NCBI RefSeq assembly: GCF_013315695.1
Contig: NZ_CP054353.1
DNA: 64,000 bases
From: Escherichia coli
Lineage (GTDB): Bacteria > Pseudomonadota > Gammaproteobacteria > Enterobacterales > Enterobacteriaceae
Reading direction: 5' to 3' (one strand)
The number at the start of each line of letters is the position of its first letter. The stretch's first letter is position 1. The notes under the pieces are model-generated. The model had not been told where the DNA came from. It did not search any database and worked only from the letters and a program-made list of their open reading frames with translations. Below are positions 53,512 through 64,000 of the stretch, one piece after another. Position numbers and translations under genes: made by a program.

Positions 53512-56065
53512 ACCGGTAGGCGATCTGGTCGTTGATTTGAGTCTGGATGCGGCCAGATTTGACGAGCAGATGGCCAGAGTCAGGCGTCATTTTTCCGGTA
53601 CGGAAAGTGATGCGAAAAAAACAGCGGCAGTCGTTGAACAGTCGCTGAGCCGACAGGCGCTGGCTGCACAGAAAGCGGGGATTTCCGTCGGGCAGTATAA
53701 AGCCGCCATGCGTATGCTGCCTGCACAGTTCACCGACGTGGCCACGCAGCTTGCCGGCGGGCAAAGTCCGTGGCTGATCCTGCTGCAACAGGGGGGGCAG
53801 GTGAAGGACTCCTTCGGCGGGATGATCCCCATGTTCAGGGGGCTTGCCGGTGCGATCACCCTGCCGATGGTGGGGGCCACCTCGCTGGCGGTGGCGACCG
53901 GTGCGCTGGCGTATGCCTGGTATCAGGGCAACTCAACCCTGTCCGATTTCAACAAAACGCTGGTCCTTTCCGGCAATCAGGCGGGACTGACGGCAGATCG
54001 TATGCTGGTCCTGTCCAGAGCCGGGCAGGCGGCAGGGCTGACGTTTAACCAGACCAGCGAGTCACTCAGCGCACTGGTTAAGGCGGGGGTAAGCGGTGAG
54101 GCTCAGATTGCGTCCATCAGCCAGAGTGTGGCGCGTTTCTCCTCTGCATCCGGCGTGGAGGTGGACAAGGTCGCTGAAGCCTTCGGGAAGCTGACCACAG
54201 ACCCGACGTCGGGGCTGACGGCGATGGCACGCCAGTTCCATAACGTGACGGCGGAGCAGATTGCGTATGTTGCTCAGTTGCAGCGTTCCGGCGATGAAGC
54301 CGGGGCATTGCAGGCGGCGAACGAGGCCGCAACGAAAGGGTTTGATGACCAGACCCGCCGCCTGAAAGAGAACATGGGCACGCTGGAGACCTGGGCAGAC
54401 AGGACAGCGCGGGCATTCAAATCCATGTGGGATGCGGTGCTGGATATTGGTCGTCCTGATACCGCGCAGGAGATGCTGATTAAGGCAGAGGCTGCGTTTA
54501 AGAAAGCAGACGACATCTGGAATCTGCGCAAGGATGATTATTTTGTTAACGATGAAGCGCGGGCGCGTTACTGGGATGATCGTGAAAAGGCCCGTCTTGC
54601 GCTTGAAGCCGCCCGAAAGAAGGCTGAGCAGCAGACTCAACAGGACAAAAATGCGCAGCAGCAGAGCGATACCGAAGCGTCACGGCTGAAATATACCGAA
54701 GAGGCGCAGAAGGCTTACGAACGGCTGCAGACGCCGCTGGAGAAATATACCGCCCGTCAGGAAGAACTGAACAAGGCACTGAAAGACGGGAAAATCCTGC
54801 AGGCGGATTACAACACGCTGATGGCGGCGGCGAAAAAGGATTATGAAGCGACGCTGAAAAAGCCGAAACAGTCCGGCGTGAAGGTGTCTGCGGGCGATCG
54901 TCAGGAAGACAGTGCTCATGCTGCCCTGCTGACGCTTCAGGCAGAACTCCGGACGCTGGAGAAGCATGCCGGAGCAAATGAGAAAATCAGCCAGCAGCGC
55001 CGGGATTTGTGGAAGGCGGAGAGTCAGTTCGCGGTACTGGAGGAGGCGGCGCAACGTCGCCAGCTGTCTGCACAGGAGAAATCCCTGCTGGCGCATAAAG
55101 ATGAGACGCTGGAGTACAAACGCCAGCTGGCTGCACTTGGCGACAAGGTTACGTATCAGGAGCGCCTGAACGCGCTGGCGCAGCAGGCGGATAAATTCGC
55201 ACAGCAGCAACGGGCAAAACGGGCCGCCATTGATGCGAAAAGCCGGGGGCTGACTGACCGGCAGGCAGAACGGGAAGCCACGGAACAGCGCCTGAAGGAA
55301 CAGTATGGCGATAATCCGCTGGCGCTGAATAACGTCATGTCAGAGCAGAAAAAGACCTGGGCGGCTGAAGACCAGCTTCGCGGGAACTGGATGGCAGGCC
55401 TGAAGTCCGGCTGGAGTGAGTGGGAAGAGAGCGCCACGGACAGTATGTCGCAGGTAAAAAGTGCAGCCACGCAGACCTTTGATGGTATTGCACAGAATAT
55501 GGCGGCGATGCTGACCGGCAGTGAGCAGAACTGGCGCAGCTTCACCCGTTCCGTGCTGTCCATGATGACAGAAATTCTGCTTAAGCAGGCAATGGTGGGG
55601 ATTGTCGGGAGTATCGGCAGCGCCATTGGCGGGGCTGTTGGTGGCGGCGCATCCGCGTCAGGCGGTACAGCCATTCAGGCCGCTGCGGCGAAATTCCATT
55701 TTGCAACCGGAGGATTTACGGGAACCGGCGGCAAATATGAGCCAGCGGGGATTGTTCACCGTGGTGAGTTTGTCTTCACGAAGGAGGCAACCAGCCGGAT
55801 TGGCGTGGGGAATCTTTACCGGCTGATGCGCGGCTATGCCACCGGCGGTTATGTCGGTACACCGGGCAGCATGGCAGACAGCCGGTCGCAGGCGTCCGGG
55901 ACGTTTGAGCAGAATAACCATGTGGTGATTAACAACGACGGCACGAACGGGCAGATAGGTCCGGCTGCTCTGAAGGCGGTGTATGACATGGCCCGCAAGG
56001 GTGCCCGTGATGAAATTCAGACACAGATGCGTGATGGTGGCCTGTTCTCCGGAGGTGGACGATGA
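53504..56065 (+). CDS. H: tail tape measure protein H
   Basis: 853 aa, coiled-coil rich, Gly-rich C-terminal region. Confidence 0.95.
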   Translation: MAEPVGDLVVDLSLDAARFDEQMARVRRHFSGTESDAKKTAAVVEQSLSRQALAAQKAGISVGQYKAAMRMLPAQFTDVATQLAGGQSPWLILLQQGGQVKDSFGGMIPMFRGLAGAITLPMVGATSLAVATGALAYAWYQGNSTLSDFNKTLVLSGNQAGLTADRMLVLSRAGQAAGLTFNQTSESLSALVKAGVSGEAQIASISQSVARFSSASGVEVDKVAEAFGKLTTDPTSGLTAMARQFHNVTAEQIAYVAQLQRSGDEAGALQAANEAATKGFDDQTRRLKENMGTLETWADRTARAFKSMWDAVLDIGRPDTAQEMLIKAEAAFKKADDIWNLRKDDYFVNDEARARYWDDREKARLALEAARKKAEQQTQQDKNAQQQSDTEASRLKYTEEAQKAYERLQTPLEKYTARQEELNKALKDGKILQADYNTLMAAAKKDYEATLKKPKQSGVKVSAGDRQEDSAHAALLTLQAELRTLEKHAGANEKISQQRRDLWKAESQFAVLEEAAQRRQLSAQEKSLLAHKDETLEYKRQLAALGDKVTYQERLNALAQQADKFAQQQRAKRAAIDAKSRGLTDRQAEREATEQRLKEQYGDNPLALNNVMSEQKKTWAAEDQLRGNWMAGLKSGWSEWEESATDSMSQVKSAATQTFDGIAQNMAAMLTGSEQNWRSFTRSVLSMMTEILLKQAMVGIVGSIGSAIGGAVGGGASASGGTAIQAAAAKFHFATGGFTGTGGKYEPAGIVHRGEFVFTKEATSRIGVGNLYRLMRGYATGGYVGTPGSMADSRSQASGTFEQNNHVVINNDGTNGQIGPAALKAVYDMARKGARDEIQTQMRDGGLFSGGGR

Positions 56066-62614: not shown

Positions 62615-64000
62615 ATGGCAGTAAAGATTTCAGGTGTACTGAAAGACGGCACAGGAAAACCGGTACAGAACTGCTCAATCCAGCTGAAAGCAAAACGTAA
62701 CAGCACCACGGTGGTAGTGAACACGCTGGCCTCAGAAAATCCGGATGAAGCCGGGCGTTACAGTATGGATGTTGAGTATGGCCAGTACAGCGTTATCCTG
62801 CTGGTTGAAGGTTTTTCGCCTTCACATGCCGGGACCATCACCGTGTATGAAGATTCTAAGCCGGGGACGCTGAATGATTTTCTCGGTGCCATGACGGAAG
62901 ATGATGTCATGCCGGAGGCATTGCGTCGTTTTGAGGAAATGGTGGAAGAAGCGGCACGCAACGCTGAAGCCGCCTCTCAGAGCGCAGCGGCGGCAAAGAA
63001 ATCCGAAACTGCAGCGGCATCATCGAAGAACGCGGCGAAAACCTCAGAAACGAATGCAGCTAATAGTGCACAGGCGGCAGCGACCTCAAAGACTGCATCG
63101 GCAAACTCCGCGACAGCAGCCAAAAAATCAGAAACCAACGCGAAAAATAGCGAGACAGCCGCAAAGACGAGCGAAACCAACGCAAAGTCCAGCCAGACGG
63201 CAGCGAAAACCAGCGAAACGAATGCCAAAGCCAGTGAAACTGCGGCAAAAAACAGCCAGGTTGCAGCAGCCCAAAGCGAGAGCGCGGCAGCCGGTTCTGC
63301 GACTTCAGCAGCTGGATCAGCAACTGCTGCGGCTAACAGCCAGAAAGCTGCGAAGACGAGTGAAACTAACGCAAAGTCCAGCCAGACGGCAGCGAAGACC
63401 AGCGAAACGAATGCCAAAGCCAGCGAAACTGCGGCGAAAAACAGTCAGGATGCAGCAGCCCAAAGCGAGAGTGCTGCAGCTGGTTCTGCAAGCGCGGCGG
63501 CTGCTTCTGCCACTGCATCAGCCAACAGTCAAAAAGCAGCAAAAACCAGTGAAACCAATGCAAAGACAAGCGAGACTGCAGCGGCGAACTCGGCGAAAGC
63601 ATCGGCAGCAAGCCAGACAGCAGCTAAAGCAAGTGAAGACGCAGCCAGAGAGTATGCAAGTCAGGCAGCAGAGCCGTATAAATATGTCTTACAGCCACTG
63701 CCTGATGTGTGGATACCGTTTAACGATTCACTGGATATGATTACGGGCTTTTCGCCGTCATATAAAAAAATTGTTATTGGTGATGATGAAATAACGATGC
63801 CTGGCGACAAGGTTGTTAAGTTTAAACGCGCATCAACTGCCACATATATCAATAAATCAGGCGTATTTAGTGTTGCTAAAATTGATGAGCCACGATTTGA
63901 AAAAGAAGGTTTATTGATTGAAGGACAGCGCACTAACTATTTTGTTAAATCCAATACTCCCGCTGAATGGACGAGTACCAGCAATATCGATAAAACTAAT
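62615..64000 (+). CDS. stf: side tail fibre protein, 5' portion (continues beyond window)
   Basis: Open frame from MAVKISGVLKDGTGKPVQNCSIQLKAKRN with no stop before the window end; repetitive (S/T)ETNAK(A/S/T) shaft repeats. Confidence 0.85.
   Translation, partial: MAVKISGVLKDGTGKPVQNCSIQLKAKRNSTTVVVNTLASENPDEAGRYSMDVEYGQYSVILLVEGFSPSHAGTITVYEDSKPGTLNDFLGAMTEDDVMPEALRRFEEMVEEAARNAEAASQSAAAAKKSETAAASSKNAAKTSETNAANSAQAAATSKTASANSATAAKKSETNAKNSETAAKTSETNAKSSQTAAKTSETNAKASETAAKNSQVAAAQSESAAAGSATSAAGSATAAANSQKAAKTSETNAKSSQTAAKTSETNAKASETAAKNSQDAAAQSESAAAGSASAAAASATASANSQKAAKTSETNAKTSETAAANSAKASAASQTAAKASEDAAREYASQAAEPYKYVLQPLPDVWIPFNDSLDMITGFSPSYKKIVIGDDEITMPGDKVVKFKRASTATYINKSGVFSVAKIDEPRFEKEGLLIEGQRTNYFVKSNTPAEWTSTSNIDKTN

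Follow-up and report, generated by a model that had tools for sequence, protein, structure and literature searches.

At the end of a stretch of 64,000 nucleotides of Escherichia coli DNA (contig NZ_CP054353.1, assembly GCF_013315695.1; the whole stretch is called the window in the following), the first part of an stf-type side tail fibre gene is encoded, and the long direct repeats in its shaft are very probably the trace of an old duplicated nine-heptad block in a modular coiled-coil stalk, from which heptads can be deleted in frame. According to this explanation, the repeats would be the DNA footprint of the stalk's modular construction. Stf would be built of a collar that clamps onto the tail tip, a short linker leading into the 36-heptad shaft, and distal beta-rich receptor-binding domains, which lie mostly past the window. 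Three chains would wind the shaft into a parallel alpha-helical coiled coil, and since the canonical helix rises by ~0.148 nm per residue, the 253 shaft residues would span about 37 nm and one unit of 63 residues about 9 nm. An old tandem duplication of a nine-heptad block left two copies that are 85-90% identical and a partial third one. The likeness from heptad to heptad and the exact runs of up to 29 nt would then allow misaligned homologous recombination or replication slippage to remove heptads in frame. One block has been lost at least twice independently and smaller whole-heptad deletions have occurred as well, with events that keep the heptad phase dominating among the surviving alleles. 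As molecular route of the deletions a RecA-dependent crossover or replication slippage may be considered, and any functional effect of the stalk length is likewise presumptive.

A preliminary description of the window had reported two stretches of roughly 90 bp that are about 90% identical and encode repeated (T/S)ETNAK(A/S)S(Q/E)TAAK units, and both observations hold. Positions 63170-63260 and 63359-63449 are identical at 85 of 91 nucleotides (93.4%), both are in the stf frame and both encode the same 30-residue peptide, SETNAKSSQTAAKTSETNAKASETAAKNSQ, all six differences being synonymous, and the 14-residue motif forms a 42-nt sub-period within each unit. A larger tandem duplication of 189 nt, i.e., 63 amino acids or nine heptads, surrounds these stretches, which are its most strongly conserved portions. 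A pairwise repeat search aligned 63107-63295 with 63296-63484 at 83% identity, and Tandem Repeats Finder reported a repeat from 63149 to 63583 with a period of 189, 2.3 copies, 83% matches, no indels and a score of 604, next to nested periods of 21 and 42 nt. Set out in heptads (Table 1), the two units show 85% identity over the 189 nt and 90% over a core of 153 nt, with exact common runs of 29, 26 and 21 nt, and the partial third unit matches the first part of units 1 and 2 at 77-79% identity. An absence of internal repetition had been named beforehand as the finding that would speak against the description; repetition is present, as seen from the period of 189 in Tandem Repeats Finder and from an identity peak at the same offset. 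The box of 62980-63620 that was originally drawn around the repeat region turned out to be slightly narrow, since the heptads extend beyond it on both sides (Table 1). No Chi site was found near the repeats, i.e., none after window position 55000.

The similarity of the two stretches could in principle reflect convergence, i.e., selection of a coiled-coil peptide in a low-complexity region of Ala, Ser, Thr and Lys without any duplication of the DNA. This would be in line with the fact that the entire shaft is one degenerate heptad and that the in-register nucleotide identity across the shaft is already 44-51% at all other in-phase offsets (multiples of 21 nt), compared to 33% out of phase. However, the offset of 189 stands out with 63% overall and 90-97% locally, the order of the nine heptads is exactly repeated and Tandem Repeats Finder needed no indels. 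Moreover, in a simulation in which two identical peptides were given random synonymous codons drawn from the shaft's own usage, an identity of 74 +/- 4% is expected compared to the 93% observed, a value reached in 0 of 5000 simulations. The shared synonymous sites are thus far above what the peptide alone would bring about, which refutes convergence of similar peptides and leaves this possibility hardly credible.

The duplication is old. Between the two-unit alleles of the window and of phages PhiR49_1, PhiR46_1 and PhiR11_1, orthologous units are 96-99% identical, whereas the paralogous units inside one gene of this set are 88-90% identical. As orthologous units resemble each other more closely than paralogous ones, the duplication predates the divergence of these alleles, and no concerted evolution is seen. 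The third codon positions hold 21 of the 28 differences between the units and 27 of the 36 differences between alleles, and this bias indicates purifying selection acting in the stf frame.

The loss of a complete block can be followed in alleles with a single unit. Two alleles from E. coli draft genomes (L009, L010) and the one of phage IdasGreatGrand (L004) align to the window with a single clean gap of 189 nt. Outside of this gap, L009 is 99.1% identical to the left and 99.5% identical in the C-terminal 1338 nt, the C-terminal 445 amino acids being 99.6% identical to the window-type protein. At the sites where the window's units differ from each other, L009 and L010 agree with unit 1 at every position up to 63235 and with unit 2 from 63247 onwards. 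In a further allele of 728 amino acids (L012, from a cluster of 219 sequences), the agreement with unit 1 ends at 63178 and that with unit 2 begins at 63208, no private mismatch occurs in the stretch, and the crossover falls within the longest exact match of the units. Since the states switch once and cleanly instead of being interleaved, the one-unit alleles are clean unit-1/unit-2 chimeras, as predicted for a crossover between already-diverged units and not for an ancestral single unit, and the two distinct switch points mean that deletion happened independently at least twice. The complete circular chromosome of E. coli CB209 likewise contains a one-unit allele with 27 heptads (L013, NZ_CM144249.1 1328534-1330720; 2187 nt, 728 aa), which was found with a query built from L012. 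The same chromosome carries a two-unit allele with 36 heptads in another prophage (1181351-1182460), about 147 kb apart, and this pair could be a substrate for exchange between prophages. As a separate observation, the 15 mismatches to L009 and L010 on the right side of the deletion are unevenly spread. Nine of them fall within ~35 nt of the partial third unit (63559-63592), in what looks like a small patch derived from another allele by mosaicism or gene conversion.

A comparison of stf lengths across related prophages had been proposed together with the preliminary description, and it yielded discrete shaft lengths. Cluster representatives were collected with native and synthetic three-unit queries (223 in total) and the shaft was measured from E101 to the next Pro. 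The shaft has the window's length of 253 aa in 150 of them and 190 aa in 56, corresponding to a loss of nine heptads. It measures 204 aa in four representatives (seven heptads lost), 239 aa in two (two heptads, two different events), 246 aa in two (one heptad, again two different events) and 225 aa in one (four heptads). All these lengths follow the rule 7n+1, so that the phase is preserved in 215 of the 223 representatives. Out-of-phase shafts of 209, 223, 226, 241, 249 (twice) and 256 aa occur in one or two representatives each, some of which could be due to sequencing or assembly errors, and one shaft of 242 aa is joined to a different C-terminus. Phase preservation is a tendency among the abundant alleles and not a rule. 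More distant alleles, namely those of ev243, PhiR40_1 and a lambda-like record (L003), have 21 heptads without the nine-heptad unit. Numbers of 21, 27, 29, 32, 34, 35 and 36 heptads are found across prophage Stf alleles, in which also the C-terminal domain varies. In a survey of PF08400 proteins among 1.84 billion representatives, stalk lengths from Pro to Pro ranged from 60 to 386 aa; as the tracker for heptad phase gave too much noise where the sequence is rich in Ala and the downstream boundary varies by subfamily, these lengths carry no family-wide statement on phase. A literature search on length variation of heptad repeats in prophage tail fibres yielded nothing specific to Stf.

The regularity of the shaft is strict at the protein level. 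Among the 32 heptads at its centre, Ser occupies position 2 in all 32, and position 6 is taken by Ala in 29 heptads and by Ser in the other three. At position 5, Ala occurs 24 times and Asn seven times; Lys or Ala stands at position 7, whereas Glu, Gln or Ala prevail at position 3 and Thr at position 4. Self-identity of the protein is about 0.5 at every multiple of seven and at most 0.3 at the other offsets from 1 to 129, and the composition is 36% Ala, 17% Ser and 1.2% Gly without any Pro. Beyond residue 352, the protein runs on as EPYKYVLQPLPDVW into the distal part. The shaft is most likely a parallel three-stranded alpha-helical coiled coil with a Ser/Ala core, as suggested by analogy to Ur-lambda Stf and to the depolymerase DpK2. 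The Asn residues at position 5 always stand in the context S-E-T-N-A (six SETNAK and one SETNAA, window 63041-63586); if Ser2 is core position a, Asn falls at position d, and such layers may resemble the ion-coordinating 'N@d' layers known from coiled coils of trimeric autotransporters. There are only three Gly residues in the 253-aa shaft, each at heptad position 1 at the end of a unit (GSATSAA GSATAAA in unit 1, GSASAAA in unit 2; window 63293-63334 and 63482-63488, aa 227-240 and 290). These Gly heptads, together with a helix break at 222-260 in the AlphaFold2 model of the monomer, could mark a flexible point of the stalk or merely be an artefact of folding the monomer. Two other assignments for the shaft were discarded. 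The NCBIfam model NlpC_P60_DIP1281 hits residues 102-348 with 19.9 bits compared to a cutoff of 517 and was rejected as an artefact of low complexity or coiled coil. A collagen-like fibre was rejected because of the low Gly content (1.2%), the period of seven instead of three and the lack of Gly-X-Y. Tail-fibre proteins of prophages in enterohaemorrhagic E. coli are reported to carry collagen-like repeats (PMC3368898). Such repeats are Gly-X-Y triplets forming a triple helix, in contrast to the seven-residue unit found here.

The closest structural parallel is the side fibre of phage Ur-lambda, which was shown to be a trimer by cryo-electron microscopy, cryo-electron tomography and AlphaFold3 (Sci Adv 2025, PMC12617516). 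In Ur-lambda Stf (gpStf, 774 aa; PDB 9e7m/9mgh), the collar takes up residues 1-91 and is joined by a flexible linker (92-101) to the proximal coiled coil (102-393), after which come a hinge and a T4 gp37-like distal domain with an OmpC-binding tip (PMC12617516). The window's gene shares with it the position after J and lom, a collar that is about 90% identical over residues 1-94, and a short linker followed by a heptad stalk rich in Ala, Ser, Lys and Glu from residue ~101. It differs in the distal part, where the hinge, the gp37-like domain and the OmpC tip of Ur-lambda are replaced by a GTA_spike_fiber domain and LamG/pentraxin-like sandwiches. In the lambda-type allele L003 the first ~10 heptads are nearly identical to those of the window, but there are 21 heptads between the same landmarks instead of 36, the nine-heptad block being absent. 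Other E. coli prophage alleles (PhiR49_1, PhiR46_1, IdasGreatGrand, ev243) belong to the same family and differ in heptad number and C-terminus. A second parallel is given by Klebsiella phage depolymerases (DpK2, 7LZJ; 7VYV, 7VZ3), in which a heptad stretch of 43-44 residues of Ser, Ala, Lys and Glu aligns to the shaft (E about 1e-3). In density of low resolution that was not modelled, the N-terminal region of DpK2 showed up as an extended triple-helical bundle (PMC8552709). This type of bundle is much shorter, is placed on a beta-helix depolymerase and not on a fibre tip, and lacks a PF08400 collar.

Several findings weigh against the picture of a modular coiled-coil stalk. The AlphaFold2 model of the full protein as a monomer shows helices at 101-221 and 261-352 with a predicted local distance difference test (pLDDT) score of 30-50, i.e., of low confidence in the shaft, and the helix is broken at 222-260. 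The low scores and the break over the Gly heptads would be expected for one chain of an obligate trimer that is folded alone. The core residues are Ser and Ala (Ser at position 2, Ala or Asn at position 5 and Ala at position 6) and not the classical bulky hydrophobic ones, although a core of small residues would be compatible with tightly packed fibre coiled coils. For the present shaft, we infer both the coiled-coil fold and the trimeric state, the trimer by analogy to Ur-lambda and DpK2. Of the distinct indel events, roughly one in two changes the length by a number of residues that seven does not divide (-4 twice, +3, -12, -27, -30 and -44), and the one-unit alleles come mostly from draft assemblies, with a single complete genome checked directly. 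Finally, the preliminary description had proposed that the repeats permit expansion as well as contraction in frame. Contraction is borne out by the 189-nt gap, the chimeras and the series of whole-heptad variants. Expansion is not: nothing beyond two units or 36 heptads was found, the sole exception being representative P0001 with three additional amino acids. When 5,426 complete E. coli genomes were searched with a synthetic DNA query of three units, the best 25 matches all had the two-unit span, where two-unit records also reach 100% coverage in two pieces and a diverged three-unit allele could rank below these 25. A synthetic three-unit protein query against 5.8 billion protein clusters returned no shaft longer than 253 aa apart from P0001.

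The length differences also allow other explanations than occasional historical deletion. The shaft might be a contingency locus, where frequent slippage in a lineage or lysate generates mixed virions with long and short stalks as a form of bet-hedging. Two independent one-unit losses, several smaller whole-heptad deletions and the genome in which one prophage has a two-unit allele and another a one-unit allele would fit this scenario. However, the units have an identity of 85-90% and share no exact run longer than 29 nt, which makes them a poor substrate compared to true contingency repeats, the orthologous units keep their 96-99% identity across alleles without a sign of homogenisation, and a three-unit allele was found neither with the synthetic DNA nor with the protein query. 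All 13 records that are at least 99% identical to the window over the 1386-nt query retain two units. Near-perfect repeats and copy numbers that differ among near-identical genomes, which define such a locus, were not found here, and we regard it as very unlikely. Because of these 13 two-unit records and the short exact runs, the polymorphism appears to be slow and historical and not a hypermutable switch. Conversely, the shaft length might be invariant and the shortened alleles might be assembly artefacts caused by collapse of the repeats. They indeed come mostly from draft or metagenome assemblies, many of them flagged as partial, and the best 30 matches in complete genomes to a query built from L009 all have two units. 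Such a collapse is not expected with exact repeats of at most 29 nt between the units, a length that is below usual assembler k-mers and reads. Moreover, one-unit alleles occur in the circular complete chromosome of CB209 and in the complete phage genome L004, and they represent several diverged classes, show two crossover points and are spread over 56 separate clusters at 90%, which makes an artefact highly improbable.

A further possibility is that stalk length is a selected, tunable trait, with the alleles of 21, 27 and 36 heptads being adaptive 'sizes' that match the thickness of O-antigen or capsule. In this case, whole-heptad deletions, especially of the nine-heptad cassette of ~9 nm, would set the reach of the tip relative to the central J fibre. 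This is compatible with the data, because 215 of the 223 shafts preserve the phase and the same loss of 63 aa recurs, but as it stands we consider it unlikely. An old duplication within a modular stalk, followed by rare deletions of heptads in frame, remains the explanation that we favor.

The assignment of the gene to the side tail fibres, already made in the preliminary description, is supported by its position after J and lom, by the PF08400 domain and by the match of its collar to PDB 9e7m. The end of the window is a lambdoid tail module (Table 1). The stf reading frame starts with an ATG at 62615 and is still open at the window's end, and its 1386 nt are 100% identical to the coding sequence of WP_001571063.1 in the E. 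coli chromosome NZ_OZ547117.1 (L001), where the complete gene has 2397 nt and encodes 798 aa. This protein is annotated as 'prophage tail fiber N-terminal domain-containing protein' and sits between lom and more tail-fibre genes. Copies with 100% identity to the window's stf occur in E. coli chromosomes, and the 'side tail fiber protein Stf' of phage PhiR49_1 (L002) is 98.7% identical. The order J-lom-stf and the annotation are alike in L001, L002, L004-L006, L008 and L013. PF08400 (Prophage tail fibre N-terminal; phage_tail_N) covers residues 1-131 with E=1.2e-68 and 229.8 bits compared to a cutoff of 26.6, residues 1-94 align with the solved Ur-lambda Stf collar (PDB 9e7m/9mgh) with E=5e-50, and phrog_1419 'tail protein' matches the full 798-aa protein end to end. 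Collar, position and heptad stalk together identify the gene at 62615, as judged from its sequence, as a side tail fibre of the lambda Stf/PF08400 family. Matches to the stf query are contained in 4835 of 5426 complete E. coli genomes, and about 1000 cover at least 80% of the query; in total, complete E. coli genomes hold ~17,000 stf places.

Some related loci are altered. In PhiR49_1, lom (L002 3328-3941) is annotated as two coding sequences of 249 and 330 nt and is apparently disrupted, whereas lom of the window is intact with 600 nt. In BL21(DE3) (NC_012971.2 1586304-1586963), only query nucleotides 447-1106, i.e., most of the shaft, are present at 93% identity; this stretch is annotated as 'phage head spike fiber domain-containing protein' and is a 5'-truncated stf remnant without collar domain. 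The best match of the representative search, P0121 (246 aa, E=1.7e-116), has two matched collar-domain stretches, possibly due to a tandem duplication of the collar domain, a fusion or an assembly artefact.

Table 1. Features of the tail-fibre region in the window, with positions counted from the first nucleotide of the 64,000-nt stretch.
Feature	Position	Strand	Basis or details
Gene J, central tail fibre / tail tip attachment protein, 1137 aa	58468..61881	+	Open reading frame; annotated in NZ_OZ547117.1 as 'phage attachment tail tip protein J'
lom, Ail/Lom family outer-membrane beta-barrel, 199 aa	61951..62550	+	Open reading frame; annotation in NZ_OZ547117.1
stf-type side tail fibre gene, first 462 codons	62615..64000	+	Translation; identical RefSeq coding sequence; phrog_1419
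N-terminal collar (tail-attachment) domain	62615..63007	+	PF08400, aa 1-131; solved lambda equivalent is aa 1-94
Shaft, 36 consecutive heptads, aa 101-352, consensus x-S-x-x-(A/N)-A-(K/A)	62915..63670	+	Heptad layout; putative trimeric alpha-helical coiled coil
Repeat unit 1, nine heptads, aa 178-240	63146..63334	+	NSETAAK TSETNAK SSQTAAK TSETNAK ASETAAK NSQVAAA QSESAAA GSATSAA GSATAAA
Repeat unit 2, nine heptads, aa 241-303	63335..63523	+	NSQKAAK TSETNAK SSQTAAK TSETNAK ASETAAK NSQDAAA QSESAAA GSASAAA ASATASA
Partial third unit, three heptads	63524..63586	+	NSQKAAK TSETNAK TSETAAA; Tandem Repeats Finder copy number 2.3, end 63583
Longest exact match between units, 29 nt; crossover interval of L012	63179..63207 (equivalent 63368-63396)	+	
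Crossover interval in alleles L009 and L010 (one unit each)	63236..63246 (equivalent 63425-63435)	+	Switch of informative sites
Alternative-frame open reading frame, 279 aa, rich in Arg/Gln/Lys/Pro; not a gene	62901..63740	+	List of open reading frames; reshuffle test
Antisense open reading frame, 146 aa, rich in Ala/Phe/Val/Leu; not a gene	62977..63417	-	List of open reading frames; reshuffle test

The shaft-coding region also contains two long open reading frames in other frames, which had been regarded as spurious from the start. Both exist as described, and with 279 and 146 codons they are long enough to raise the question of real overlapping genes. To evaluate their lengths, the synonymous codons of stf were shuffled among identical residues 1000 times. 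The open length of the +1-shifted frame is 281 codons compared to 276.6 +/- 4.1 in the reshuffled sequences, and that of the antisense frame is 155 compared to 142 +/- 46, the observed values being reached by 34% and 32% of the reshuffles, respectively. Since the shaft contains only 9.8% T (2% at second codon positions), stop codons are rare in every frame. Furthermore, the variation at third positions of stf falls on first or second positions of the other frames and the products would be of extreme low complexity. Both frames are thus by-products of composition, and we give next to no credence to their being genes.

The distal part of the protein (aa ~434-798) was studied in the NZ_OZ547117.1 record (L001 7300-8397), as the window contains aa 1-462 only. 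The NCBIfam model GTA_spike_fiber ('phage head spike fiber domain') matches aa 434-634 of the full Stf, and Foldseek searches with the confidently modelled distal beta domains returned beta sandwiches of the LamG/neurexin LNS, pentraxin and lectin-like botulinum-toxin Hc types. This suggests a jelly-roll tip that may bind carbohydrate or protein and that would not be T4 gp37-like. Neither a gp37-like distal domain nor a downstream Tfa as in lambda was found for this Stf; both are a trait of lambda's own allele and not of the mosaic PF08400 family as a whole, and the divergent distal part fits the known mosaicism of tail fibres. In NZ_OZ547117.1, stf is followed by a hypothetical protein of 93 aa and a 'tail fiber domain-containing protein' without an intact tfa. 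Further downstream (L001 9713-10910), two tail-fibre-assembly pseudogene fragments, a DinI pseudogene and an S-adenosylmethionine (SAM) methyltransferase precede ompT. These pseudogene fragments suggest that the right end of the prophage in NZ_OZ547117.1 is partly decayed or mosaic.

As a summary, the reported repeats are real and belong to ordinary phage biology that is already known: the identical sequence is present in RefSeq and the architecture of the stalk was described for Ur-lambda. The detail added here is modest and consists of the nine-heptad cassette, two mapped independent deletions and the series of whole-heptad variants, and it matters little beyond annotation. It explains the long false open reading frames found in several frames of this region, the discrete lengths of stf-like genes in E. 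coli prophages (798/799 aa compared to 727-736 aa) and their alignment in two pieces. For phage engineering, the natural alleles indicate that the Stf stalk tolerates the loss of 1, 2, 4, 7 or 9 heptads. Because the allelic series shows this tolerance, the nine-heptad block can be viewed as a natural cassette to change the length of the fibre, while collar and receptor-binding tip stay untouched.

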